From Roseivivax sp. (lineage in GTDB: Bacteria; Pseudomonadota; Alphaproteobacteria; Rhodobacterales; Rhodobacteraceae), in assembly GCA_038138625.1 (NCBI GenBank), contig JAYQEA010000003.1, positions 14,269 through 78,268 of the forward strand: 64,000 nt of DNA, given 5' to 3'. The notes under the pieces were generated by a model. That model was not told where the DNA came from. It searched no databases and saw only the letters and a list, made by a program, of their open reading frames with translations. Within the stretch, counting starts at the first letter, position 1, and each line of letters begins with the position of its first letter. The position numbers and the translations under genes are program-made. Of the stretch, positions 10,728 through 45,553 are shown piece by piece.

Positions 10728-13746
<3,019 letters not shown>

Positions 13747-14252
13747 TCAACCAACGTGTTCACTCACGTGCAGGATGCGCCATCGGTGCAACTTGGGCAA
13801 TCCTTGGATCGGCAATTTTGACACCAAGCCTCATGTATTTCTGGCGGCTAGGGTTTTGAAACGAGGTTTCCGTACAGCACTGACGCTTTGCGGTCCCTTG
13901 ATGCGGCTATTTTCATATATGGGAAAAACGTGGGGCATAGGGACCGGCGATGAAACAGATTTTGGTTTGGACATGCGGCTTGACTGCGAGCGTTCATTGA
14001 CCCCGCCCTAACATCTGCGGGACGCGGTCTTAGGTCCGCCATCGATAGCGGATATACGATTGGCCTCCACATAACTCTAAATAGAACTGAGTGAGTATGT
14101 TGGAAAGAAATTCTGACGGGATGGTTGTAGGCTACATTTTGAAGCAGTGTGTTGCCCGGAAAAGAGAGTATCGCGTATGCCAAGATCACTGGTGCGCAAC
14201 ATCATGAGGCCGCCCTGTCGCGAACACAACTTGGAATATTGGAGAATTACGA

Positions 14253-14996
14253 GTGGCCGATTACAGCCTCAATAGGCGCACTTTAATGTCACTCCTCCCC
14301 GTTAGTGTTTTCGGTTTGGCAAGCTGCGCCTCTGGTCAATCGTCATATGATCCACGCTTAGAAACAGACGCGCAGTTTCAAGCAATGGTGTTACGCAGGA
14401 TGCCCGACTATCGCTTAACATCCTCTATCACCGGGCGCGCTGTGGTGCGTTCGCCGGGATACGCGCTTATGGGTGTCAGGCGTGCTGATAGCCCTCAGAC
14501 TATTATCCGCGACTTCTTGGCTCAGTTTGAAAACACTGGACTGCGCGCAGTTGACCTTTATTTCGACCAAATCACTAGGCATGGCGATGCGTGGCGTGTG
14601 AGATTTCCAGGGTGTAGTTCGGGGGGATGTGTAAATGTTGCGCAGAATTTAGCCTTGGAGCAAGTTTCAGAAGAAGTGCATAATCGGTACCGTGCGGATC
14701 GAACCTCACTCGGGTTTAAAAAGCACGTGATAGCTGAAGCGACCCTTTCAGAGGTCGCTTACCAGGCTGAAGTATCTGTGGGTTATGACTATCGGGGCCG
14801 GGTTATTGGTTATCGAGTGAGAACCAACCGCGCGCCGATAAATGACGCGGAACGTGAATGGGTAAGGCGCAATGCCAGATCACGATTTTCTCATCCGGTT
14901 AATGTATTTCAATATTCACATAATCTCGCGCTTGGTGTGAGCGAATTTTATGATGACGGGCCTAGCATCGGTGGCAACAGTTCAAGGGGATTGTAA
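14253..14996 (+). CDS. hypothetical lipoprotein (possible Tat-type signal)
   Basis: The GTG start has GGAGA 8 nt upstream. The N-terminus MADYSLNRRTLMSLLPVSVFGLASCASG has a twin-Arg and the lipobox L-A-S-C. Third codon positions are AT-rich, unlike the neighbouring genes. I recognise no family. Confidence 0.55.
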   Translation: MADYSLNRRTLMSLLPVSVFGLASCASGQSSYDPRLETDAQFQAMVLRRMPDYRLTSSITGRAVVRSPGYALMGVRRADSPQTIIRDFLAQFENTGLRAVDLYFDQITRHGDAWRVRFPGCSSGGCVNVAQNLALEQVSEEVHNRYRADRTSLGFKKHVIAEATLSEVAYQAEVSVGYDYRGRVIGYRVRTNRAPINDAEREWVRRNARSRFSHPVNVFQYSHNLALGVSEFYDDGPSIGGNSSRGL

Positions 14997-14998
14997 TC

Positions 14999-15127
14999 AT
15001 GAGTTTTTGGGGTGGGGTATCCGATGCAATCAGCTCAGTCGCCGAAAGTATCGGAAATGCGATAAGTTCGATAGCGGAAGGAATCGGCAATGCAATTAGC
15101 GGTATTGAAAACTGGACGTCCAATTAA
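14999..15127 (+). CDS. 42-aa anionic micro-protein built from three 11-residue repeats
   Basis: The ATG lies 2 nt after the lipoprotein stop, with AAGGGGA 8 nt upstream. The product is MSFWGGVSDAISSVAESIGNAISSIAEGIGNAISGIENWTSN. Repeat units ESIGNAISSIA and EGIGNAISGIE share 8 of 11 residues, and 5 of those 8 are encoded by different synonymous codons. That pattern argues for selection on the protein. Confidence 0.45.
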   Translation: MSFWGGVSDAISSVAESIGNAISSIAEGIGNAISGIENWTSN

Positions 15128-15130
15128 TTT

Positions 15131-15274
15131 ATGGAACCGATGGGTAATACCCACGCAAGAATGATTGAAAAATTGTACTCCCAGAGCGTATCCCGAGGCA
15201 CTCTTATAATAAATCTACCAACAGGTGTTTTGTTATGCCTTGGCCTAATTGGGAACGCGTCCGAAGACGAATAA
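15131..15274 (+). CDS. 47-aa micro-ORF with one hydrophobic segment (speculative)
   Basis: The ATG lies 3 nt after the previous stop. The product is MEPMGNTHARMIEKLYSQSVSRGTLIINLPTGVLLCLGLIGNASEDE. There is no clear SD. The call rests only on the tight spacing and the TM-like stretch. Confidence 0.25.
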   Translation: MEPMGNTHARMIEKLYSQSVSRGTLIINLPTGVLLCLGLIGNASEDE

Positions 15275-15391
15275 TGAAACAGAATTCATTCCCGCAATGT
15301 CGCCAATCAATCTGTCACACAGGCAAAATTGCAGATTACATCCATTGAATGGAGTAACCCGTACCCATCACGACGATTCATTCAGCGGCTC

Positions 15392-17061
<1,670 letters not shown>

Positions 17062-17065
<4 letters not shown>

Positions 17066-17319
17066 TCGAGACACGCGATACGCGGCTGCGACGACTAAGA
17101 ATGCGATCCATGCGGCGCGGTATAAAGGAAATGGATATTATCTTGTCGACCTATGCGGCGGTCCGGCTTGATAAGATGACCGAAGAAGAACTGGTCGCCT
17201 ACGATGCGTTGCTGTCCGAAAACGATCAGGATTTGTATCAGTGGGTGTCCGGGCAGCGGTCTGCCCCAGACGACGTGATTAAGATAATCAAAGATATCGC
17301 AAAAACGGTAGAAAAATAA
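17062..17319 (+). CDS. sdhE: succinate dehydrogenase assembly factor 2 / FAD assembly factor SdhE
   Basis: The 85-aa ORF reads RLRMRSMRRGIKEMDIILSTYA...EEELVAYDALLSENDQDLYQWVSGQ, the Sdh5/DUF339 pattern. Confidence 0.8.
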
Positions 17320-17408
17320 ACAGCATTTTAGTCAGCTGCGTATCGCTTAACCGGTTGTTTCGTTTTTTTGCAGAAGTTGCATCAAAGCGAAACTTTACGG
17401 AGATACGA

Positions 17409-17906
17409 ATGAGCATACACACCCCCCTAGGTCAATCTACCCATCATGGGTTCATGGCTGGATATCTAGACAGCCTCGCGCTGGTTGAGCGGTTGCACCG
17501 ATTGTTACTTGACGTGATCAAAGACGAATTTGAGCGGGTTGGGATCATCGATATCAACGCTGTGCAGGCCCTGTTGCTGTTTAATGTAAGTGACAATGAA
17601 GTCACGGCAGGCGAACTGAAAACGCGCGGCTACTACCAAGGCTCTAACGTTAGCTACAATCTCAAAAAACTTGTTGATATGGGCTACATGCATCATCAGC
17701 GATGCGAAATTGATCGCCGGTCCGTCCGGGTGCGCTTGACCGAAAAAGGGCGCAACATCCGTGACATTGTCGATTCGTTATTCCAACGTCACGCCAATGG
17801 CATCGAAACCCGCGGTGTTCTGGATACCGACGGATTGGATAGTATTGCCGGATCGCTGCGCCGTCTTGAACGATACTGGACAGAACAAATCCGCTATATT
17901 TACTAA
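17409..17906 (+). CDS. MarR-family winged-helix transcriptional regulator
   Basis: GGAGA lies upstream of the ATG at 17409. The winged-helix core reads VTAGELKTRGYYQGSNVSYNLKKLVDMGYMHHQRCEIDRRSVRVRLTEKG. Confidence 0.7.
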   Translation: MSIHTPLGQSTHHGFMAGYLDSLALVERLHRLLLDVIKDEFERVGIIDINAVQALLLFNVSDNEVTAGELKTRGYYQGSNVSYNLKKLVDMGYMHHQRCEIDRRSVRVRLTEKGRNIRDIVDSLFQRHANGIETRGVLDTDGLDSIAGSLRRLERYWTEQIRYIY

Positions 17907-18109
17907 TGCGTACTTGATACGCCTTGGGACAAGAACTGTCCCGTTACAATAAGATCAAGACCCAAGTAAGATCCGACCCCCCCTTACCGTTGAGCATATT
18001 AAGGGTCTAAAACCTGCGGTATAAAGACAGCGATTAGGCAACCGATGCCTTTCGTCTTGCATACTCGACCAAGAGTCCCCCAAAATTGTAAGTGGTGCCC
18101 CGCTTGGTT

Positions 18110-24118: not shown

Positions 24119-24657
24119 ATCAACAACTTACCCGTTACACGCCCATAAAAAAGGAGCGCAAGGAATAGGCGTGACCTGCCAAAGCTAATCGAAATATACT
24201 CGGATACTTAGAAGCCAACTCATCAATGGTTTGGCTTTCTGTAACTAGAAACTATACTTTTAGAACTCTTGCCTATTTCTTCTGCACTTTTGTTGTTTGA
24301 TCAAGCAAAATATTGCAAAGACGCCGAAAATGTTAACTTACGCTTAGATTTTCACTGAAACAGGTGGTTTTGTGGTAAATATCTGATAACATTTGGGCAT
24401 TTTACGTAATATGCCACAAATCTGCCATAAAAAAGAAAGGCAATCCAGCACGGAAAATGCGCATACCCATGCCGAATCACTTCTGATGACGCATGGCCGT
24501 ATTGTGAAAATAAGGCTCCTCAGGATGTACGATTTCAGGCACATGAGTGGCGACTGTGCGGTTCAAACCTCTTCTGCGCGCTGAAGAGGTTAAAAAGCTG
24601 CCAAACTGATTTATACTGGGTCTCGGGTGTCTCGCTTTGAGACGAAAGGGGCGATAC

Positions 24658-26850
24658 ATGGCGAACATGCGGCAGATGCAGGCAGAGGATGCCGCGAAGC
24701 TACAAAATGGGACACACGATAGTCCTTTCGCAGTTCTTGGATCACATCGTGAAGCGGTTCGGATATTTTGGCCAGGAGCGCGATCCGTTCAAATCATTCA
24801 CAATGGCGTAGTGACGGATCTGGCATCAGACGACGCGGACCTTTGGGTGGGGCCACCGGTCTTGCATGATTACAAAATTCAGGTTTGTGCCGCAGATGGA
24901 TCGCTGTCGCGGGTCGAGGATGTCTATAAGTTTGGTCCGGTACTGGGAGAGTTGGATGCCTATTTGCTGGCCGAAGGGACGCATAAACAGTTGTGGCGGG
25001 TTCTCGGTGCCCATGTGATGGTTCATGAGGGGGTCTGCGGAACACATTTTGCAGTCTGGGCCCCTAATGCCCGCCGCGCTTCTGTCATAGGTGAGTTTTG
25101 TAACTGGGATGGTCGTCGATTGCCAATGAGACGCGTTGGCGCCTGTGGTGTTTGGGAAATTTTTATTCCCGATGTGGGCGAGGGTGCGACCTACAAGTAT
25201 GAGATCCTGACGGACACTGCAGTCTTGCAAAAGGCAGACCCGGTTGGTTTCGGGGCTGAACATGCCCCTGCGACAGCGAGCGTTGTGCGCGATATTTCAG
25301 GTTATGGCTGGAGGGACCAGTCGTGGATGGCATCGCGAGCCAAAGCGCAGGATCGCAGTGCACCGATGTCCATCTATGAGGTTCATCTTGGATCATGGCG
25401 TCGGGTTGGTTCCGAGGCGCGGCCTCTGTCTTACAAAGAACACGCGCGTGACCTCGTGGAGTATGTTCGCGATATGGGCTTTACGCATATTGAAATCATG
25501 CCGGTCAGTGAATTCCCGTTCGACGGCTCTTGGGGATACCAGCCGGTGGGTCTTTTTGCGCCCACGATCCGTTTTGGTCCACCCCACGAATTTCGGGATC
25601 TTGTTGATGCAGCCCATCAGGCGGGTATTGCCGTTTTGATTGATTGGGTGCCGGGCCATTTTCCCGCCGATCCACATGGGCTGGCGCAATTTGATGGCAG
25701 TTTCCTTTACGAGCATGCAGATCCGCGGGAAGGTTTCCATCAGGACTGGAATACATTGATCTATAATTACGGTCGGGTCGAAGTCCGCAATTTCCTTGTT
25801 GCCAATGCTATGTTTTGGCTGGACGAGTATCATGTTGACGGTTTGCGTGTCGATGCTGTGGCATCCATGCTATACCGAGATTATTCGCGCGCAGCTGATC
25901 AATGGGTTCCCAACGAGGATGGTGGACGAGAAAACTACGAGGCCATTGCTTTTTTGCGCGAAACAAACGTCGCTGCCTACGGCGCGAATGAGGGCATCGT
26001 AACCGTGGCCGAGGAAAGCACGTCGTTTCCCAAAGTATCAGCCCCGGTTCACAATGATGGCCTTGGCTTTGGCTTTAAATGGAATATGGGATGGATGAAT
26101 GACACACTGCGCTTCATGGCCGAAGACCCTGTCCATCGCAAATATCATCATCATTTGATGACATTTGGGATTGAATACGCGTGGTCCGAGAATTTTATCT
26201 TGCCAATCAGCCATGACGAGGTCGTGCACGGCAAAGGATCAATGCTGACCAAAATGCCCGGAGACCGATGGCAGCAGTTTGCCAATTTGCGCGCCTATTA
26301 TGGGTTCATGTGGGGACATCCCGGCAAGAAACTTTTGTTTATGGGGTGCGAATTCGCCCAGCCCGAAGAATGGAACCATGACGGACAATTGAATTGGGAT
26401 GCAGCTGCGCAACCGATGCATTCGGGCGTACAAACACTGGTTCGAGACTTAAATCATCTCTATGCGCGCTGTCCTGCATTACATGCACTAGATTGTGACC
26501 CATCCGGTTTTGAATGGGTGAACGGGGGCGATACAGAGCAGTCTACGCTATCTTTTTTACGGCACGGGCCAGATGGCACGGCATCGGTTTTGGTTGTTTG
26601 CAACTTTACTCCAATGACGCGCACTTCATATTGTGTGGGTGTGCCAAAGTCCGGCCGGTGGCGTGAGATATTGAACACTGATGCGGCGATTTACGGCGGC
26701 AGTAATACTGGTAACCATGGTGAACTGGTGGCGCAGTCCACAGCCCATCAGGGCCAGCCGGCTTGTATCGAAATGACACTGCCGGGCCTAAGTACCGTCA
26801 TGTTTGAATGGCAGGATGAACTTGATCTGATTGGAGAGCACCATGGTTGA
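24658..26850 (+). CDS. glgB: 1,4-alpha-glucan branching enzyme
   Basis: GH13 motifs are present: [37 protein letters not shown]. The ATG at 24658 has GAAAGGGG upstream. Confidence 0.95.
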
Positions 26851-28102
26851 TAATCGAAGACTGACACAGCGGTCGATGGCCTTTGTTCTGGCTGGTGGTC
26901 GGGGCAGTCGGCTTAAGGAACTGACCGATAGGCGCGTAAAACCCGCCGTCTATTTTGGTGGAAAAACACGTATTATTGATTTTGCCCTGTCCAACGCCAT
27001 GAATTCAGGCATTCGTAAAATTGCCATAGCAACCCAATACAAAGCACATAGCCTGATCCGCCATTGTCAGCGGGGATGGAACTTTTTTCGGGCTGAGCGG
27101 AACGAGTTTTTAGACATCCTCCCCGCAAGTCAGCGCATGGGCGAAGAGAACTGGTATCAGGGCACTGTTGATGCCGTGACCCAGAATATCGATATTGTTG
27201 ATAGCTATGATGTTGATTACGTTGTAATTTTGGCTGGTGATCATATTTATAAGATGGATTACGAAATCATGTTGCGCCAGCATGTGGAAACCAAGGCGGA
27301 CGTGACCATCGGTTGTTTGACGGTACCCCGTCATGAAGCTTCGGCATTCGGGGTCATGGCTACGGACCATGCCGGACAGATCACCAGTTTCTTAGAAAAA
27401 CCAGCTGATCCGCCCGCTACGCCAGAAGATCCAGACAAGGCGCTCGCCTCGATGGGAATTTATGTGTTCAACTGGAAATTTCTGCGGAGTTTGTTGATCC
27501 ACGATATGAATGATACCCATTCAACCCATGATTTTGGCAATGATTTGATCCCGGAAATTGTCAAGACCGGGCGCGCCATGGCGCATCGCTTTGATGAAAG
27601 CTGTGTTCGGGCATCTGGGGCACCGGCATACTGGAAAGATGTCGGCACCGTTGATGCCTTTTGGGAGGCCAACATTGACCTGACCAACTTTACGCCGGAT
27701 TTGAACCTGTGGGACAGCCAGTGGCCGATCTGGACATACTCCGAAAGTGTGCCGCCAGCCAAGTTCATTCATGACGAACGCGATCGGCGCGGTGTCGCAA
27801 TCTCATCCATGGTGTCGGGGGGGTGTATCATTTCAGGGACCGAAGTGCGCAATTCCCTGCTTTTCACCGAGGTACATACAAATTCCTATGCGGTGCTGGA
27901 TCATGCTGTCGTGCTGCCGTATGTCACGGTCAATCGCAACGCGCGATTACGAAAGGTGGTCATTGACCGCGGCGTTGATATTCCGGCAGGACTTGTCGTT
28001 GGTGAAGATCCTGTGGAAGATACAAAATTCTTTCGCGTAACGGAAAAAGGGACAACGTTGATCACGCAGAACATGGTCGACAGATGGAGCGCCGCACAGT
28101 GA
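26843..28102 (+). CDS. glgC: glucose-1-phosphate adenylyltransferase
   Basis: It reads [39 protein letters not shown]...YQGTVDAV. Its ATG overlaps the glgB stop (ATGGTTGA). Confidence 0.95.
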
Positions 28103-29520
28103 TCCAAGTCCTATCAGTGACATCCGAATGTGTGCCTTTCGTCAAAACGGGGGGGCTTGCAGATGTGGCTGGTGCTTTGCCGACAGCGCTTGCCCAGCAG
28201 GATGTTCGCGTGCGCACTCTGCTTCCGGGCTATCCTGCGGTAATGAAATCTCTTGTCAAAGCGGCACCTGTTTTGCGTTTTGACACAGTGTTCGGAGGTC
28301 CAGCCCGCGTTCTGGAAGCGACATGTGGTGGCCTCGATGTATTGGTGCTGGATGCCCCGCATCTTTTTGACCGACCCGGGAATATCTATCTGGCTCCCGA
28401 TGGGGCCGACTGGCCAGATAATGCAGAACGTTTCGCGGCGCTTTCATGGGTGGCGGCGCAAATAGGGTTGAAGGGCGCTCGGACGTGGCGGCCCGATGTG
28501 CTACACTGCCATGATTGGCAGGCTGGACTGGCGCCCGAATACCTGCGCGCCGCCGACAGTGCACTACCAAGTGTGATGACGGTGCACAATATTGCCTTTC
28601 AGGGTCTGACGCCTGCGCTAAATCCGGCCCGTCTTAAACTGGACCCTGACCGTTTTTCCGCAGATGCCTATGAATTTTATGGAAAAATCTCTGCGCTAAA
28701 GGCCGGACTGATGGCTGCGGATTGGCTGACGACGGTGTCCCCCAGTTATGCCGCTGAACTCATGACACCTGAATTTGGTATGGGACTGGACGGGGTTTTG
28801 CGACATCGCGCAAACCGTCTACGCGGTATTTTGAATGGGATCGACACAGTCGTATGGGACCCGAGCACGGACCCCGAGATCAAGACCTTTAAATCTTTAC
28901 GCGGTAAAGTCCGTACCAAGGCTGCATTGAGGACCGAGTTTGGCCTGCCCGTATCTGCGGGTCCGTTGTGCGTGGTGGTGTCTCGACTGACGGAACAAAA
29001 AGGCTTGGATCTGCTGCTGGATGCTTTGCCCAACCTGCTGAACCGGGGTGGGCAGCTTATCGTGCTTGGTTCGGGTGATCCAAAGCTCGAAGCGGGTTTT
29101 CGTGCTGCTGCTAAACATTCACAAGTTGCTGTTCACATCGGCTATGACGAGGCGATGTCGCACCGTTTGATTGCGGGTGGTGATGCGATCCTCGTTCCAT
29201 CTCGGTTTGAACCTTGTGGGCTTACGCAGCTGTATGGTTTGCGCTATGGCACCCTGCCGCTTGTCGGTTTGACGGGGGGACTGGCGGATACAGTGATCAA
29301 TGCCTCGCCTGCCGCATTGGATCGCGGTGTCGCCACCGGAATTCAGTTCCACCCTGTTGGGGATACTGCCCTGCGCACTGCACTGGATCATCTGTGCGAT
29401 TTGTGGTCCCAGCCCGATGTCTGGCGCAAGATGGTGCGAAATGCCCAAAAACAGCCCGTGGGGTGGGACCGTTCCGCGGCCGCCTATGCAGAGCTATACC
29501 GCGAGGCGCTGGCATCGTGA
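28084..29520 (+). CDS. glgA: glycogen synthase (ADP-glucose type)
   Basis: It reads [20 protein letters not shown], has a GT5 fold, and contains [12 protein letters not shown]. It overlaps the glgC end; a GTG at 28099 is an alternative start. Confidence 0.9.
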
Positions 29521-29537
29521 GACAGGGCAACATCCCG

Positions 29538-31616
29538 ATGCAGGCAGGGCGGCCTTGGCCGCTCGGGGCAAGTTTTGACGGAGAGGGTGTGAATTTTGCA
29601 ATCTTTTCCGAACATGCGACGCGTTTGGTTCTGTGTTTGTTTGATCCGGTGGGCCAAGAAATCCTGAATGTGCCCCTTCCAGAATGCGACGGGCACGTCT
29701 GGCATGGCTATGTGCCGGGCCTGCGGCCCGGGCAGTTATACGGCTTTCGCGCCCATGGCCCTTATCGGCCAGATCACGGACACCGGTTCAACCCTCACAA
29801 GCTGCTTATGGATCCCTACGCCAAGCGTCTGACAGGCCATCCGGTGTGGCATGATGCGCTTTATGGATTTACGCGTGGTGACCCAAAGGAGGATCTGAGC
29901 ATGGACGTCCGTGACAGCGCCCCCTATATGCCTCGGTCGGTGGTCGAAGACCCCTCATTTTCCTGGAACCCGCGGCCAAAGCCCAATACCTCCTTGCATC
30001 GGTCCGTGATCTACGAAACCCACGTCAAAGGGCAGACCGCTCTTCATCCCCGGATCCAGCGCCGGGGTACATTTTTAGGACTGTCCGAAGCCCCGATGCT
30101 GGACCACCTGACCAAGCTGGGTGTCACTGCGGTGGAATTGCTGCCGGTTCAAGCCTTTTTGGACGACCATTTTCTGGTTGACCGCGGTCTTTCCAATTAT
30201 TGGGGATATATGACCTGGGGCTTTTTTGCGCCTGATCCCCGGTATTTGGCGCATGGCGAAATCGCCGAGTTCCAGGAAATGGTCAGCCGCCTGCATGGTG
30301 CAGGGATCGAGGTTCTCTTGGATGTGGTGTATAACCACACAGCCGAGGGGGACCAAAACGGCCCGACTTTGATGTTTCGCGGTTTGGATAACGCCAGTTA
30401 TTACCGCCTGCAATCCAATCCGCGTTTTTACAATAACGATGCAGGGACCGGAAACACGCTGAACCTTGATCATCCATTTGTGATGCGATTGGTGCTGGAT
30501 TCCCTGCGCTACTGGGTCGAGGTCATGCATGTTGATGGGTTTCGCTTCGATCTGGCTTCGGTCCTGGGTCGCGATCGAACGGGTCAGTTTTCAACAGACG
30601 CGGCTTTTTTCAAGGCGTTGCGGGCGGATCCCGTTTTGTCGCGGGTGAAACTGATTGCAGAGCCATGGGATATTGGCGCGGATGGCTATCAATTGGGCCA
30701 ATATCCGGCCCCCTTCGCAGAGTGGAACGATGGTTTTCGTGATGATTTACGGGCCTTTTGGCGCGGCGATTCAGGTCTTTCTTCGCAATTGGCCGAACGC
30801 ATTGCAGGCTCTGCTCCGGCATTTGACCACAACGCACGCGCGGCATCCTCTTCGATCAATTTTATATGCGCCCATGATGGGTTCACTTTGACAGACGTGG
30901 TCAGCTACGCGCAAAAACACAACGAGGCCAACTGCGAAAATAACCAAGACGGCCACGCCCATAACATCAGCGACAACTGTGGCGTTGAAGGACCAACTGA
31001 AGAAACGCATGTCTTGGCAAAGCGTGCACAAAGGCGGCGTAATCTGATGGCGTCATTGCTGCTGTCGCAGGGCACTCCGATGATCCTTGCAGGCGACGAG
31101 GTCGGCAATAGCCAGCTTGGCAACAACAACGCCTACTGTCAGGACAATCCAATCGGTTGGATCGACTGGTCGCAAGCGGATTGGGCGTTTTTTGATTTCT
31201 GTCGAAAGGCAATAGCCTTTCGTGCTGCTCACCCGATCTTACGCCAGACCCGTTTTTTACATGCCAAAGCGCGATTGGTGGACGGAAAACCTGATTTGTT
31301 TTGGCGCCGTTTTGATGGCGCACTGATGCAAGACGAGGACTGGAACGACCCTGAACTGCGCCTTGTTGTTGCCGAATTGCGCATGGCGTCCGGGACGCCG
31401 GAATACCGCCCTCGCGAAGGCGCGGTCGTTCTTGCCTTAAATGCAGGCACTGAAACACGCATTGCGCTTCCCCGGCCGCCAAATGGGTTGCAATGGGAAC
31501 GATCTTTTGACACATCTGCCGATCCTGTGCACGACAGTGGAACGGTGAGACGGGTGATCGCGGCCAGCATAGCCGCCTTTACTCTGACAGCACTGCCCGC
31601 CGCGACACAGCCCTAA
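29538..31616 (+). CDS. glgX: glycogen debranching enzyme
   Basis: It reads [27 protein letters not shown], then [25 protein letters not shown] and [14 protein letters not shown] at 29517 (GTGA overlap with glgA) is an alternative start. The ORF opening at 29214 is out-of-frame overlap with glgA. Confidence 0.9.
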
Positions 31617-31642
31617 TAAACCGACCCGAGGACGAACACCCG

Positions 31643-34030
31643 ATGCCCGATGCCCGCGCACCGCTAAAGCCTGCACGTCTGAAAACCTTGATCCTGCAAC
31701 ACTTGCGGATGACGGTTGGCAGGGACCCCAATCACGCAACGCGCCGGGATTGGCGTATGGCGCTTTCTCTTGCCATTCGTGAACAGATGGTTGCGGCTTG
31801 GTTGGATGCCAATGATGCAGCCCAAACGGCAGGATCAAAACGGGTTTATTATTTGTCCATGGAGTTTTTGATCGGGCGTCTTCTTGGTGATGCCCTCGAA
31901 AATCTGCGTGTGACGGATGCTGCGGGCATAGCGCTCAGGAAATTGGGTGTATCACTGTCCGATTTGTTAGATGACGAACCCGATGCAGCTTTGGGAAATG
32001 GGGGATTGGGGCGGTTGGCTGCATGCTTTTTGGAGAGCATGTCAACTCTGCATTGTCCGGCCACGGGCTATGGCTTGCGGTTTGAACATGGCTTGTTTCG
32101 CCAAAGCATGACAAACGGAGCGCAAGTTGAAACCCCTGAGGATTGGCTTGTTGATCCCAACGTATGGGAAGTCCCGCGCCCCGAGACTGTGTATCAGATC
32201 GGGTTCGGCGGACATGTTGGATCTGACGGCATATGGTATCCGGCGCAACGCATGCAGGCGCGCGCCTATGATACGCCCGTTGTCGGCTGGCAGGGGTCTT
32301 GGGCCAATACATTGCGTCTGTGGGAGGCCCGACCGACGAAGGTTCTCGACCTTGCGCTATTCAATGCGGGCGATCATACACATGCAGCCCACGCCGAGGC
32401 GCAGGCTCGCGCGTTAAGCCGGGTTCTATACCCCGATGACGGCTCTGATGCGGGCAAAGACCTTAGGTTGAAGCAGGAATTTCTTTTGGCGTCCGCATCG
32501 TTGCAGGACATCTTGCATCAATTCCGAAAAGAAGAAACGCGCTGGGGGCGTCTACCAGATCGGGTCGCACTTCAATTGAATGATACGCATCCCGCAATTG
32601 CCGGGCCGGAATTAATGCGGTTGCTGGTTGATGTGCATGGCGTGGACTGGTCACAGGCCAAGGAACTGACGACCGAAGTCTGTCATTATACCAACCACAC
32701 CCTTTTGCCCGAAGCATTGGAAACATGGTCTACCTGGGCCATCGGCAATACACTGCCTCGGCACATGCAGATCATAGAACGGCTCGACGGTGAACATGCG
32801 GCAGCCAATCCATCCAGGCCCGCAAATGTCGGGATGGTGCGCGATGATGCTGTGCGGATGGGCGATGTCGCCTTTATCATGGCACGGCGTGTCAACGGTG
32901 TGTCTGCGCTGCATTCAGACTTGATGACAAAAACGGTGTTTTCGGATCTGCACAAGCTGCACCCCGAAAAAATTCTGAACCATACAAACGGCGTGACTCC
33001 GAGACGCTGGATCCGGTTGGCAAATCCCGGATTAAGCGGGCTTTTGACAGAGGCGTTGGGCGAAGGTTGGTCCAATGACCTTGGGCGTCTGACAGGGCTC
33101 GAGCCCTTGGCCAAAGATGCAGTGTTCCAGCGCAAATTTATGCAAGTAAAGCGCGCAAACAAGCTGGCTTTGTCCAACTGGTGTCACGCAGAGCTGGGGA
33201 TTGCCGCAGATCCGGATGCCATGTTCGACATTCAGATCAAGCGTATACATGAATACAAACGCCAGCTGATGAATGTTTTTGATGTCATTGGATTGTGGTC
33301 TCGGATGCGCGCAGAGCCCGAGCGTGACTGGACGCCCCGCGTCAGGATTTTTGCGGGTAAAGCGGCACCGGGCTATGTCCTGGCCAAAGATATCATTCGA
33401 CTGATTACTGCGGTGGCGGACCGGGTGAATAACGATCCTTTGATGCGCGGTCGGCTTAAGGTCATTTTTGCCCCGAATTATAATGTCTCACTGGCGGAAC
33501 GTCTGATTCCGGCGGCAGATTTGTCCGAACAGATCTCAACCGCGGGCAAAGAGGCGTCTGGCACAGGCAACATGAAATTTACAATGAACGGCGCGTTGAC
33601 CATAGGGACCTTGGATGGCGCGAATGTGGAAATTCGCGAGGCCGTGGGCGCTGAGAACTTTTTCCTCTTTGGTCTGACGGCTCAAGAAGCGCAGGATCGG
33701 ATGTCGATCCCCGGGCATGCGCGATCCGCGATCGAGGCCAGCCCCATGCTGCAAAATGTTTTGCAGTTGATTGTCGAGGGTCAGTTCGCGCCGGATGAGC
33801 TCGGACGGTTCAATAATATCGTAAACCGCACATGGCACGACGACCCTTTTCTCGTTGCAGCAGATTTTGATGCCTATGCCGCGTGCCAAGATGAGGTTGC
33901 CAAGATTTATGGCTCTGACGATTGGACGCGCATGTCTATTTTGAATGTCGCACGGTCAGGGATGTTTTCTTCGGATCGTACAATACAAGGATATATGCGC
34001 GATATCTGGCGTCTTTCCCCGATCCCGTAA
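31643..34030 (+). CDS. glgP: glycogen/maltodextrin phosphorylase
   Basis: It reads GNGGLGRLAACFLES and has the PLP lysine motif EASGTGNMKFTMNGALTIGTLDGANVEI. The product is 795 aa. Confidence 0.95.
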   Translation: MPDARAPLKPARLKTLILQHLRMTVGRDPNHATRRDWRMALSLAIREQMVAAWLDANDAAQTAGSKRVYYLSMEFLIGRLLGDALENLRVTDAAGIALRKLGVSLSDLLDDEPDAALGNGGLGRLAACFLESMSTLHCPATGYGLRFEHGLFRQSMTNGAQVETPEDWLVDPNVWEVPRPETVYQIGFGGHVGSDGIWYPAQRMQARAYDTPVVGWQGSWANTLRLWEARPTKVLDLALFNAGDHTHAAHAEAQARALSRVLYPDDGSDAGKDLRLKQEFLLASASLQDILHQFRKEETRWGRLPDRVALQLNDTHPAIAGPELMRLLVDVHGVDWSQAKELTTEVCHYTNHTLLPEALETWSTWAIGNTLPRHMQIIERLDGEHAAANPSRPANVGMVRDDAVRMGDVAFIMARRVNGVSALHSDLMTKTVFSDLHKLHPEKILNHTNGVTPRRWIRLANPGLSGLLTEALGEGWSNDLGRLTGLEPLAKDAVFQRKFMQVKRANKLALSNWCHAELGIAADPDAMFDIQIKRIHEYKRQLMNVFDVIGLWSRMRAEPERDWTPRVRIFAGKAAPGYVLAKDIIRLITAVADRVNNDPLMRGRLKVIFAPNYNVSLAERLIPAADLSEQISTAGKEASGTGNMKFTMNGALTIGTLDGANVEIREAVGAENFFLFGLTAQEAQDRMSIPGHARSAIEASPMLQNVLQLIVEGQFAPDELGRFNNIVNRTWHDDPFLVAADFDAYAACQDEVAKIYGSDDWTRMSILNVARSGMFSSDRTIQGYMRDIWRLSPIP

Positions 34031-42472: not shown

Positions 42473-45400
42473 TCAGGGTGGTGTCAGAACGATGGTTCTT
42501 CCGCTCCTTACATAGCGGAGTTCGTCGCGCGTGATCGCAGCAACGCGTCCACCGTCAAGGCGATCTCCGACGGCAACCTGAACATAGCGGCCATTGACCA
42601 GGCGTATTGTTGCGCGTCGCTGCCCGGGTGTTCCATAAATGCCCATGACATTAATGCGGCGGCGGTTCAGGGCGTTTGTTTGTGTTGCGGCGCGGGCGAC
42701 GCTGATTGGTGTGTTTGAGGTTATGGTCGCAGCCGGCGCCGCCGCGCGTGGCTGCGCCGTTGCAGCAACCTCGCGGGTTTGGGGTGTTTGCGCCGCGCGC
42801 GCGGTCCTGACGATCCGGTCAAAATCGCGGGGCCTGCCTATAGGGCGTGGTGCAACTTTAACAGCTTGTGTGGTAGCGGACGTGTCTGCCTCGTCCAGAT
42901 CCTTTTGTGTGATCGGACGGGGGCGTGGTCGAAAGCCCGACAGTTCGGCAAGAGAAAGCCCGCTCAATTCGGCGCGTTCGCGTCTCTCACTCAGGCTGTC
43001 TGGACGAAGTTTTGGACGTGCTGCTTTCATCGCTGCCTGTAAAGCCAAAAGCTCGGGCGATTGGGACAGAAGCGCGGCTTCGGCTGGGCGCGGGGGGGGA
43101 ACTGTTTCTGGAGCGCCGAGATAGACCATGAAGCGGTCTGGCGAAATGGCACCCTCTTTTGTCGCCCGGACCAGTCCACGCGCGTCAAGATCAAAACGGA
43201 ATTCAGGGCCCAGGGGCAAAACCGGTGGTGGTACGGGGCGGTCCACGCGAAGCTGTCCAACGCTTGCCAATGCCACGGCATCCGGTTGCGGGACGCGCGC
43301 ATCTATTGAAGTGGTGTAGACTGCGCCCAATCCCTCGGCAGTTGGGATGCCGGGTTGTTGCGGCCCGCGTTGCCAAATTCCCGTCGCCACATAGGCGGTT
43401 TCGGCCTCGGTTTCAGACACGACCTCGAAGGTGTCGGGCGCAGTCAGGTTTGAGGTTTGCGGCATTGGCGCTACGGGGTCTAACACCGACAGACTGAGCG
43501 TTCCGGCGTCACCGTTGTTCGGGCCACCCGGGACAAGAGAGTTTGTCTCGGCTGTATCAACACCACGCAATGATCCGGGTAGGAACCGCGCCAGACCGTC
43601 GTCCAAAAACACCGAAGCCCACACCGCCGCACCCGCCAGAACCATAAGCAGTGTCAATGTGAGGACAAGGCCCACAAGACGCGACTGGCGCTGCCTTTTT
43701 AAGCGTTTGGGATGCGCGAACGCTTCGTCTATTGATTTAGGGGCTGCGCCATCCGCTGATGGCATTGGGGGGATTTCAGGATCCTCATCCAGCGGCGGTA
43801 GGTCCGGTTCTTCGGCACGCTGTTCGGCGAGTGCGGTTGTGATCACGGCGCCGGGGCGATTGCGCGCCGGTAAAATGCCAAACCGACGTTTGGGTCTAAC
43901 GTCGTCGGCTGTATCGGGTTTGGTGTCAGATTCAATAGTCTCGTCAGCGACGAGTGGTGCGTCATTGAAGTCTTCTACCGCTGCGTTGCGACGGCCGAAC
44001 AATCGCGACTTTTTACGCGGTTTTTGAGGTGGATTCAGAGGGAAAGGATCTTCATCCCATTTCGGAGATGGATCCGTGTCGCGCGGCTTGGATTTGAATG
44101 CGGGGGGGGCATCGGGCCGGGTCAGCGAAAGACTTCCACGGCGTTCTGTGCTGGAGTCGCCGCGATCCCCGCGCACTGATGCAAAAGCCGGAGGATTTTG
44201 GGCTGCTAATGGAGGACGTGTAGGGATTTCTGGTGTGTCGCGACGTGGCGGTAACGGAGGTCGCATGCCACCGTCTGCACGGCGACTGCTGAATGTGGCA
44301 AGCGGCTGTGGTGTTTCGGTTGCGACTGAGACATCTGATCCATCCGGTGGCTCGAGGTTCGGCGTTTGGGCGTTCTGTGCGCCGTCGTTTGGCCCAGACG
44401 TTGTCTCGTCCGGATCATTTTCGCTGGACCCCGCAACACTTGATGGGTCATTTTCTTCTGCTTCTGCTTCTGCTTCTGCTTCTGCTTCTGCTTCTGCTTC
44501 TGCTTCTGCCTCTGGCATGTCAGAAATAATGGGCTCGATTGCATCTGACGGGGCAGGCGCAGGATCTTGAAAATCGTCCTCTGGCACGAGAGGTGACACA
44601 AGAGGTCTTGCAGGCTGATTTTCTTCGTCCGGCTCAATCGGATCAGTTGCGGGCATCTCTGCCAAGGCATCAAAAGCGTTTTGTGCGAGATCTGTGTCGG
44701 GTTCTTTGTGCCCATCAGCATCGCGCAGGGCTGCAAACGCGGCCTTGCTTAGCGAATCTTCGGGCTCATTTTCTTGGTGCAGAGCGTCTTCTGCATCCTG
44801 TGCATTTAAAACATCTTTGAAACTGGGATGCGATTTTTCAGCGTCATCCGGAAAAATCGTTTCGGTTTGATCAGAGGTGTCCGTGTCGTCTGTGTTCTTT
44901 GAAAGATCCGTGCCGACTGAATGGTCTGTCTTCTCGACGGACGCATCGTCTAGCGGCTCATCCGATTGTGATGGTGTCAGATCATCTGCGCCAGATTGTA
45001 TTTCGCCTCTTGGAGAAGGTAAGTCCGGGATCGGATTATCATCGCGTTGCGGTAAATCTCCGGTCCAACCGCGCGCGGCGCCAAAAAACACCTCACCTTC
45101 AAACGAGTCTGACAAACAAGCCGCGAAACACACCGCAGAAAAGCCATGAGCGGTGGCAAACACCTCCGCCTGTGTGAGCGTTTCCCGAGCCACCGCAGCC
45201 ACCTGAATTTGAGTGCCTACAATAGCCCAGTCACAGACCAATTCATGTGCCTGGTACGGCGTTTCAGCTTCCAGAGCCCGATTGATTCGGTCCTGCATCG
45301 CGGCACCACGGGCGCCGTCGTCTTCAAGACAGAGAAATTTGATCTGCGTATCCGGGATGATCAGCTTGACATCAACACTGCCGGTGCTGCGCTTTAGTGC

Positions 45401-45553
45401 CTGATTGTAAAGGTCTGCGAGCGCTTCTTTGAGGTCGGGTGCGCTGACCGCAACTTCGCCCAAGGCAATCCACCCCTTGGCGTCGCGCGCCAAAAGGGCG
45501 ATGCCATCGTAGGACAAGGACAACGCAAAATCCGGTTTCATGAGTGGCTGCAT
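42473..45553 (-). CDS. large membrane-anchored proline/acid-rich protein, conserved hypothetical
   Basis: The 1026-aa ORF has four parts. First, a structured N-terminal domain of about 160 aa. Second, about 450 aa of low-complexity D/E/P-rich sequence that includes (EA)n. Third, one TM helix (LVGLVLTLTLLMVLAGAAVWASVFL). Fourth, a C-terminal part ending INVMGIYGTPGQRRATIRLVNGRYVQVAVGDRLDGGRVAAITRDELRYV. Confidence 0.7.
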   Translation of the reverse strand: MQPLMKPDFALSLSYDGIALLARDAKGWIALGEVAVSAPDLKEALADLYNQALKRSTGSVDVKLIIPDTQIKFLCLEDDGARGAAMQDRINRALEAETPYQAHELVCDWAIVGTQIQVAAVARETLTQAEVFATAHGFSAVCFAACLSDSFEGEVFFGAARGWTGDLPQRDDNPIPDLPSPRGEIQSGADDLTPSQSDEPLDDASVEKTDHSVGTDLSKNTDDTDTSDQTETIFPDDAEKSHPSFKDVLNAQDAEDALHQENEPEDSLSKAAFAALRDADGHKEPDTDLAQNAFDALAEMPATDPIEPDEENQPARPLVSPLVPEDDFQDPAPAPSDAIEPIISDMPEAEAEAEAEAEAEAEAEAEENDPSSVAGSSENDPDETTSGPNDGAQNAQTPNLEPPDGSDVSVATETPQPLATFSSRRADGGMRPPLPPRRDTPEIPTRPPLAAQNPPAFASVRGDRGDSSTERRGSLSLTRPDAPPAFKSKPRDTDPSPKWDEDPFPLNPPQKPRKKSRLFGRRNAAVEDFNDAPLVADETIESDTKPDTADDVRPKRRFGILPARNRPGAVITTALAEQRAEEPDLPPLDEDPEIPPMPSADGAAPKSIDEAFAHPKRLKRQRQSRLVGLVLTLTLLMVLAGAAVWASVFLDDGLARFLPGSLRGVDTAETNSLVPGGPNNGDAGTLSLSVLDPVAPMPQTSNLTAPDTFEVVSETEAETAYVATGIWQRGPQQPGIPTAEGLGAVYTTSIDARVPQPDAVALASVGQLRVDRPVPPPVLPLGPEFRFDLDARGLVRATKEGAISPDRFMVYLGAPETVPPPRPAEAALLSQSPELLALQAAMKAARPKLRPDSLSERRERAELSGLSLAELSGFRPRPRPITQKDLDEADTSATTQAVKVAPRPIGRPRDFDRIVRTARAAQTPQTREVAATAQPRAAAPAATITSNTPISVARAATQTNALNRRRINVMGIYGTPGQRRATIRLVNGRYVQVAVGDRLDGGRVAAITRDELRYVRSGRTIVLTPP
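44455..44514. repeat. (CTTCTG)9 perfect hexanucleotide tandem repeat plus one degenerate unit
   Basis: The repeat is read directly at 44455-44508 and is followed by CCTCTG. On the coding (minus) strand it encodes the EAEAEA... tract of the 1026-aa protein. Confidence 0.9.

Follow-up and report, generated by a model that had tools for sequence, protein, structure and literature searches.

The 42-codon open reading frame at positions 14,999 to 15,127 (+) of the window, the whole 64,000-nucleotide stretch of Roseivivax sp. DNA that was analyzed, is very probably a vestige of a longer gene that has decayed, of which it represents the 5′ end, and not a peptide that is being maintained for a function. 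The ancestral unit would have been a two-gene cassette in which gene 1 encodes a lipoprotein and gene 2, starting 2 to 16 nt downstream, encodes a protein composed of MSFW, three to six amphipathic 11-residue repeats, a conserved linker and a further C-terminal domain. In the lineage of the window, a TAA at codon 43 would have cut gene 2, and the sequence beyond it would have decayed or been replaced. The remaining stub shows partial homology to a longer ORF under selection, a stop at a sense codon and lesions among its relatives, the features by which a pseudogene is recognized. As originally posed the finding therefore matters little, since an apparently designed anionic repeat peptide turns out to be a truncated gene start. 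The parent cassette is of moderate interest, as neither of its genes carries a family annotation and no fold in the PDB matches the lipoprotein.

The 42-codon frame and its repeats

The ORF encodes MSFWGGVSDAISSVAESIGNAISSIAEGIGNAISGIENWTSN, which consists of MSFW, three hendecads and NWTSN followed by the stop codon, and corresponds to residues 1 to 38 of the long ORFs at loci L011, L013, L019 and L021. The repeat units, each of 33 nt on the forward strand, lie at 15,011 to 15,043 (GGVSDAISSVA), 15,044 to 15,076 (ESIGNAISSIA) and 15,077 to 15,109 (EGIGNAISGIE), and both the ORF and its three units have exactly the position and sequence given in the earlier note. A recount also agreed with its observation that units 2 and 3 share eight of 11 residues, five of them through different synonymous codons, and with its description of the peptide as anionic and devoid of Lys and Arg (four Asp plus Glu, no basic residues). 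At the DNA level, the same two units are identical at 21 of 33 nt, and their mismatches are distributed 2:2:8 over the three codon positions. Upon shuffling of the 33-residue core, a unit pair with at least eight of 11 identities arose in four of 100,000 trials and the summed identity was reached in none of 100,000. Tandem Repeats Finder reported no DNA-level tandem array across the stub region, indicating that the repeat has been kept at the protein rather than the DNA level.

The ATG of the stub begins 2 nt past the stop codon of the lipoprotein gene (14,994 to 14,996), and a Shine-Dalgarno–like AAGGGGA, read from the sequence, is present 8 nt before the ATG at 14,984 to 14,990 (+), within the last lipoprotein codons. 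Because this site and the 2-nt spacing remain, the stub may still be translated as a harmless amphipathic helix. The length of the ORF is by itself no evidence for a gene, as 86 ORFs of at least 25 amino acids overlap the surrounding 6.5 kb, and no convincing promoter or terminator was found at the locus. An antisense ORF encoding a hydrophobic 53-aa product (14,962 to 15,123, −) overlaps the stub. Because it changes completely in L001, this ORF most probably arose from the periodicity of the sequence.

In Pfam, NCBIfam and PADLOC, nothing matched the peptide below E = 0.01, the best hit being Tape_meas_lam_C at E = 0.06, and a word-index search returned no homologs. An exhaustive HMMER search of 1.84 billion representative proteins yielded 12 matches, among which only the truncated fragments P0023 and P0026 are true N-terminal homologs. 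The other matches are repeat proteins, including tape-measure–like proteins, a Lipase_3 protein with cationic 11-mers and a phage-related 79-aa peptide from Thermosipho. No stand-alone homolog of the 42-aa peptide was present among these 1.84 billion proteins, and the exact peptide is absent as a called protein from a collection of 15 billion.

AlphaFold2, run on the single sequence, predicted the 42-mer as one helix spanning residues 3 to 41 with a pLDDT of 93.6. The 33-residue core has a hydrophobic moment of 0.456 (z = 5.5) with a best angle of about 99.3°, and the 88-residue repeat domain of L011 gave 97.7°, compared to 98.2° for an 11/3 helix. The 11-residue periodicity behind the amphipathic helix proposed earlier is thus seen in the angle, the moment and the predicted helix, and on these models the idea holds as a domain of the parent protein.

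Comparison of the window with L019 over the 38 shared codons gave nine synonymous and four nonsynonymous differences (Sd 9, Nd 4) and a dN/dS of 0.10, indicating past constraint in a functional gene. Between close truncated alleles, two to three synonymous changes stand against three to six nonsynonymous ones (G5D, A21L, I11T, A15V and I25T are among the substitutions), counts that are too small to decide. The claim that the synonymous divergence reflects selection on the amino acid sequence is sound, in that the stretch shares ancestry with the N-terminal domain of a gene under purifying selection; what the synonymous differences between units preserve is a fossil record of selection that acted on the full-length protein. 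Repeats that diverge synonymously should be read with this caution, since they prove past selection and not present function.

The parent gene and its decay

Two metagenomic contigs carry long forms of gene 2. In L011 (ENA k141_297656), an ORF of at least 167 codons starts 2 nt past the lipoprotein stop and runs off the contig; it reads MSFWSDLGDAISGLFEAVSDALTSIAEGIGNVISGIAN..., continues through about six hendecads and then through WIFNNIIDPVGGILSGIFQGSRQAHALSLDDQALAALLSKAAYA...KIYIGVGGTSPFSSE. In L021 (Logan SRR14597289), where the lipoprotein is 55% identical to that of the window, gene 2 begins 16 nt downstream and encodes at least 149 amino acids before running off the contig (WISNNIIDPIGDTLSGLF...FLSKAAYA...NDTAWSFTDKITGERYVAVGGTS), with the same plan, linker and C-terminal part as in L011. 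Both ORFs open with the MSFW-hendecad sequence of the stub, and the window peptide matches the first 38 residues of their product. The two ORFs differ with a pS of 0.84 (saturated) against a pN of 0.275, in the repeat part as well as in the C-terminal part, which identifies them as a genuine long gene under selection. The earlier description of a complete, selected peptide of three 11-residue units between two tryptophans consequently does not hold, as a premature TAA ends it while the gene elsewhere extends over at least 149 to 167 residues, and what was taken for a new peptide class is the start of that longer gene.

The number of hendecads varies among parent genes, from about 4.6 in L021 to at least five in L019 and six in L011. 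The L011 form differs in length from the form shared by the window and L013 by exactly 33 residues, and L021 and L011 differ by 15, so that length changes do not always comprise whole units. Following the repeats is the conserved linker W-I-x-N-N-I-I-D/N-P-I/V-G-x-x-L-S-G-I/L-F-x-G-S. No full-length gene 2 was recovered, as no contig found reaches its 3′ end. A homolog search with the L011 ORF returned only P0023, a cluster look-up gave no longer members, and tblastn of the parent gene against plasmids and phages returned nothing or tape-measure repeats only. The visible 60 to 70 residues past the linker matched no Pfam family (E up to 10) or PDB profile. A segment of this part, ALLSKAAY...FTDKSTGKIYIGVGGTSP, aligned pairwise with the beginning of the P0024 Lipase_3 domain in a single, weak comparison (E 0.02), and a profile comparison with hhalign, made on the incomplete gene 2 sequence, gave a probability of 0.8%; a lipase-type C-terminal domain is only a lead suggested by this alignment.

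In the DNA alignment, the TAA of the window (15,125 to 15,127, +) falls where the homologous long ORFs encode Asn (AAT/AAC). The eight in-frame codons after it (15,128 to 15,151, +) encode FMEPMGNT, resembling IINPIGDT or IIDPIGDT of the parent linker, and in tblastn the L013, L011 and L021 proteins align to the window through the TAA and up to 15,151. The stretch WTSN-stop-FMEPMGNT pairs with WIPNNIINPIGDT or WISNNIIDPIGDT in the same order and frame and without gaps. This 13-residue match has a local score of 35 against a shuffle mean of 19, and eight of 2000 shuffles reach 35 (p ~0.004). Nucleotide identity to L013 is 94% over 14,240 to 15,116 and about 56%, counted by eye, just beyond; because of this fall, homology past the stop rests on the 13 residues, and the post-stop tail is either an older, more diverged copy or weakly supported. 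Overall, the alignments give moderate evidence that homology continues past the TAA. From 15,152 to 15,391 (+) follows a spacer of low GC content (44–47%) that reaches the 3′ end of a convergent aminotransferase gene. Neither a significant remnant of the parent gene (tblastn with the L011 and L021 ORFs) nor a credible Rfam match was found in the sequence beyond 15,151. A subthreshold match to the Rfam CRISPR-DR16 family at 15,188 to 15,256 (+) reached 19 bits where the gathering score is 35 (E = 0.38) and is probably due to chance.

At related loci, gene 2 has been disabled independently by several different lesions. A 1-nt deletion at codon 26, found in L001, L002, L006 and L016, leads to a 54-aa ORF with an unrelated tail. 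The four contigs derive from two samples of one study (L001 and L002), a TARA sample (L006) and a MAG (L016); three of them come from genomes 93 to 100% identical to the window in flanking DNA, and the frameshift is tied to three different lipoprotein alleles. Phase variation was considered for this allele and rejected, since the deletion sits in a GG dinucleotide and not in a homopolymer tract. In Aliiroseovarius crassostreae (L013), three hendecads and the linker are kept and the gene is broken after about codon 75 by an IS3-type insertion, with IS3-type orfA and rve fragments 3′ of the break and another rve fragment upstream. In L019, five hendecads are followed after codon 62 by the end of an IS carrying a DDE_Tnp_1 transposase, and the same IS end is inserted after about codon 109 in L020 (P0023). 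The shared IS end, GGAACGTCTGATCAACGGCTCCGCGAGCGCGGATGCGCTGGCTTGAGGGTG, is located at about 1495 to 2366 in L019 and about 1035 to 1087 in L020, hence at two different codons in two metagenomes, which suggests repeated targeting of the parent gene by the IS or high IS activity there.

Gene 2 also breaks after codon 41 in P0026; in L010 its start codon is lost and three frames are needed to follow it (multiple frameshifts); eight codons remain in L012 and L015; and no trace was found in the Thioclava loci and L018. The 42-codon frame is intact only in the window and in the allele of L007 and L008 (G5D, A21L). Retention of the frame by homologs, which the earlier note had proposed as a test, is thus seen in some of them and not in others, and the idea of a peptide conserved in its own right is contradicted by the codon 26 frameshift in four contigs together with the lack of stand-alone homologs.

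Three other explanations of the stub were weighed against a decayed gene start. The 42-aa product could be a functional small anionic amphipathic peptide of membrane surfaces, co-opted or ancestral, that acts with the lipoprotein. Such a role would agree with an intact ATG preceded by a Shine-Dalgarno site, with the 2-nt coupling to the lipoprotein gene, with the confident prediction of a single helix of high hydrophobic moment and with a dN/dS below 1 in several comparisons; the retention of the frame in the window, L007 and L008 may also point to a residual function. However, the frameshift allele occurs beside three lipoprotein alleles, close alleles are separated by several nonconservative substitutions, the stub is wholly absent from many loci that retain the lipoprotein, and no stand-alone homologs exist among the proteins searched. 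Moreover, the low dN/dS derives from L019, whose ORF continues for at least 62 codons before the IS. We consider a functional peptide improbable on this evidence. Still less credible is a noncoding region in which the 33-nt periodicity represents a DNA-level repeat with a role in regulation or recombination, or in which the ORF arose by chance. The ORF is never called by tools or annotations, many chance ORFs of similar size lie nearby, and a recombination tract ends within the stub at 15,082, but the absence of a tandem DNA repeat, the 2:2:8 distribution of unit differences, the collinearity with long ORFs under purifying selection and the lack of an Rfam match argue against it. The codon-position, Tandem Repeats Finder and selection evidence largely refutes this reading.

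A phage origin was examined on the basis of the repeats. A dozen PHROG tape-measure families match the N-terminal domain of L011 (E 4e-8 to 2e-4) and are its best profile matches, the 42-aa peptide matches phrog_58 at E = 0.002, and tblastn of the parent sequence finds Streptococcus phage tape-measure genes; the Tape_meas_lam_C hit is weaker. Tape-measure proteins contain a variable number of 11-residue repeats with W/F markers (PMC3271669), and the N-terminal domain of gene 2 has in common with them the hendecad periodicity, the pattern of small and hydrophobic residues and occasional aromatic markers (W4 and F15 in L011). Stub and parent might accordingly be a fragment of a tail tape-measure–type protein from a degraded prophage. 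However, no phage genes adjoin the cassette in any context, no related locus exists in 2.9 million viral contigs, and the repeat domain occupies the extreme N terminus of a protein with a different C-terminal part. Unlike tape-measure proteins, gene 2 encodes only three to six repeats, at the N terminus of a short protein outside a tail gene cluster, and the two Trp residues of the window are 35 rather than 33 residues apart. The PHROG matches are confined to the periodic, low-complexity repeats and may therefore reflect convergence. Given the lack of accompanying phage genes and of viral relatives, we regard the match as a resemblance and not as membership, and a prophage origin as very unlikely.

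The lipoprotein gene and exchange of the cassette

Directly upstream of the stub is an intact gene for a 247-aa lipoprotein (14,253 to 14,996, +) with the lipobox LASC and an RR pair in the signal peptide, the first gene of the cassette and possibly an immunity protein. Only 20 homologs were found in 5.8 billion proteins, all from Thioclava and marine metagenomes and none with a Pfam domain. A genome scan added loci in A. crassostreae CV919-312 (94% identity), a Paracoccaceae MAG and a Pseudoprimorskyibacter MAG; when metagenomes were scanned with the lipoprotein profile, a single degenerate locus (L017) came up. In the alignment (A2), 37 columns are invariant, two of them Cys, and the lipobox is conserved. 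The family had no match in Pfam, NCBIfam, PADLOC or PHROG, and no homolog was located on plasmids. An AlphaFold2 model (pLDDT 77.8, pTM 0.74) did not match any fold in the PDB, the best hit having E = 0.075 and a TM score of 0.15.

Purifying selection on the lipoprotein was evident in every allele comparison (omega ~0.2), and its gene remains intact in the alleles tested (the window, L001, L007, L010 and L013), in each of which gene 2 is broken. Thioclava marina and Thioclava sp. L04-15 carry two to three tandem, diverged lipoprotein paralogs, 29 nt apart and without a downstream partner gene. These arrays (L003, 3001 to 4520; L004 and L005, 3001 to 5296) are situated between a TraB/GumN-family gene and groES.

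The locus between the phosphoglucomutase and aminotransferase genes was compared over 14,172 to 15,116, with flanks from 11,286 to 17,996, against L001, L006, L007 and L016. In 200-nt bins, the window and L001 are 99 to 100% identical on both sides and 78 to 82% identical across 14,400 to 15,000, and the last difference of this diverged block, at 15,082, lies inside the stub. Lipoprotein alleles at the site have a dS of 0.5 to 0.7 and 55 to 98% protein identity, the most diverged being L016 (45% protein difference). One lipoprotein, P0001, is linked to intact as well as to frameshifted stub alleles. Together with the presence of diverged alleles in near-identical flanks, this indicates allelic replacement by recombination. 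The lipoprotein locus is a hotspot of such replacement, and one of the breakpoints falls within the conserved 5′ part of gene 2.

The only part of the window common to loci in other contexts is 14,172 to 15,116 (+), which delimits the transferable cassette. In blastn, the window matches L013 over 14,240 to 15,116 (94%), L011 over 14,172 to 15,107 and L010 over 14,231 to 15,099. The GC content dips across the cassette relative to its flanks, the cassette occurs in at least six different genomic contexts, and no inverted or direct repeats marking a mobile element flank it.

Candidate functions and known relatives

It is possible, and still rather doubtful, that the cassette is a mobile effector/immunity-type module of marine Paracoccaceae, including the oyster pathogen A. 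crassostreae, that has not been described previously. Gene 2 would then encode a membrane-targeted effector, whose acidic N-terminal hendecad domain, related to tape-measure repeats or convergent with them, would serve as the lipid- or membrane-binding part and carry a hydrolase-like C-terminal domain to membranes. The lipoprotein, with its apparently novel fold, would be a periplasmic protector of the producer, retained once the effector is lost, and the window stub would be one of many decayed copies. It is less likely that the retained stub peptide still modulates the lipoprotein. In favor of an effector/immunity pair are the co-oriented upstream lipoprotein gene, with a gap of 2 nt in the window and L011 and 16 nt in L021, the lipoprotein arrays of Thioclava that lack gene 2, the dS of 0.5 to 0.7 between lipoprotein alleles at one chromosomal site with flanks 99 to 100% identical, and the variety of genomic contexts. 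Repeated loss of gene 2 with gene 1 kept is the pattern expected of such a pair, and the movement of the cassette among genomic sites, with deep allelic replacement at one of them, adds to its interest. If true, the cassette would represent a new competition module in bacteria of the roseobacter group and a new use of 11-residue amphipathic repeats.

Among known systems, the cassette shares several features with X-Tfe/X-Tfi and Tle/Tli pairs, namely the tight two-gene order with the lipoprotein gene upstream, the often broken second gene next to a lipoprotein under purifying selection, the orphan arrays of lipoprotein paralogs, and mobility with deep allelic diversity. In gene order, its closest counterparts are the X-Tfi/X-Tfe pairs of bacteria-killing type IV systems. 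In those pairs, the lipoprotein X-Tfi genes lie upstream, Lipase3 and DUF2974 effectors occur, and frameshifted effector fragments are found (PMC6536674); a type IVA system has been reported in A. crassostreae (PMC4796133). Unlike X-Tfe and Tle proteins, gene 2, which is known without its C terminus, showed no recognized toxin domain, and no XVIPCD, PAAR or MIX targeting domain was detected at its N terminus. The lipoprotein also differs from Tli and X-Tfi proteins in that no known immunity protein matches it in sequence or fold, and no secretion-system genes are present within the window, which is composed of housekeeping genes (glycogen metabolism, LepA and others). Considering the missing domains, secretion system and immunity match, membership in the X-Tfe or Tle families is not established.

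The repeats also resemble those of apolipoproteins, perilipins, α-synuclein and group 3 LEA proteins in their 11/3 periodicity, sustained hydrophobic moment and predicted single long helix. However, the peptide and the L011 and L021 domains match none of the apolipoprotein or perilipin Pfam families, and in contrast to class A helices, the window, L011 and L021 domains are acidic, have a high content of Gly, Ser and Ala, and lack a Lys-flanked polar face. A short, helical and amphipathic product is likewise reminiscent of PSMs and of class II or leaderless bacteriocins, and L011 gave a marginal PSMbeta match (E = 0.095). Unlike these peptides, the stub is anionic and not conserved as a stand-alone ORF, and its neighbors are housekeeping genes rather than the transporter, leader or immunity genes of those systems.

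Hendecad repeats were also encountered in two unrelated proteins, joined to a lipase in one and as a stand-alone peptide in the other. P0024 (578 aa) has an N-terminal Lipase_3 domain followed by about 25 cationic 11-residue repeats (NVGNKVRNTAR) that match the Apolipoprotein and Perilipin Pfam models, and P0025, the 79-aa "phage-related" Thermosipho protein, contains GVGNAVKSVAK three to four times. Elsewhere in the window, a 1025-aa ORF at 42,473 to 45,553 (−) had no Pfam match at E ≤ 1e-5. Finally, a glycogen metabolism cluster at 24,637 to 34,030 (+) encodes a GlgB-type branching enzyme, a CBM48 debranching-type enzyme and a glycogen phosphorylase and, together with the phosphoglucomutase gene at 12,100 to 13,731, represents an ordinary chromosomal context.
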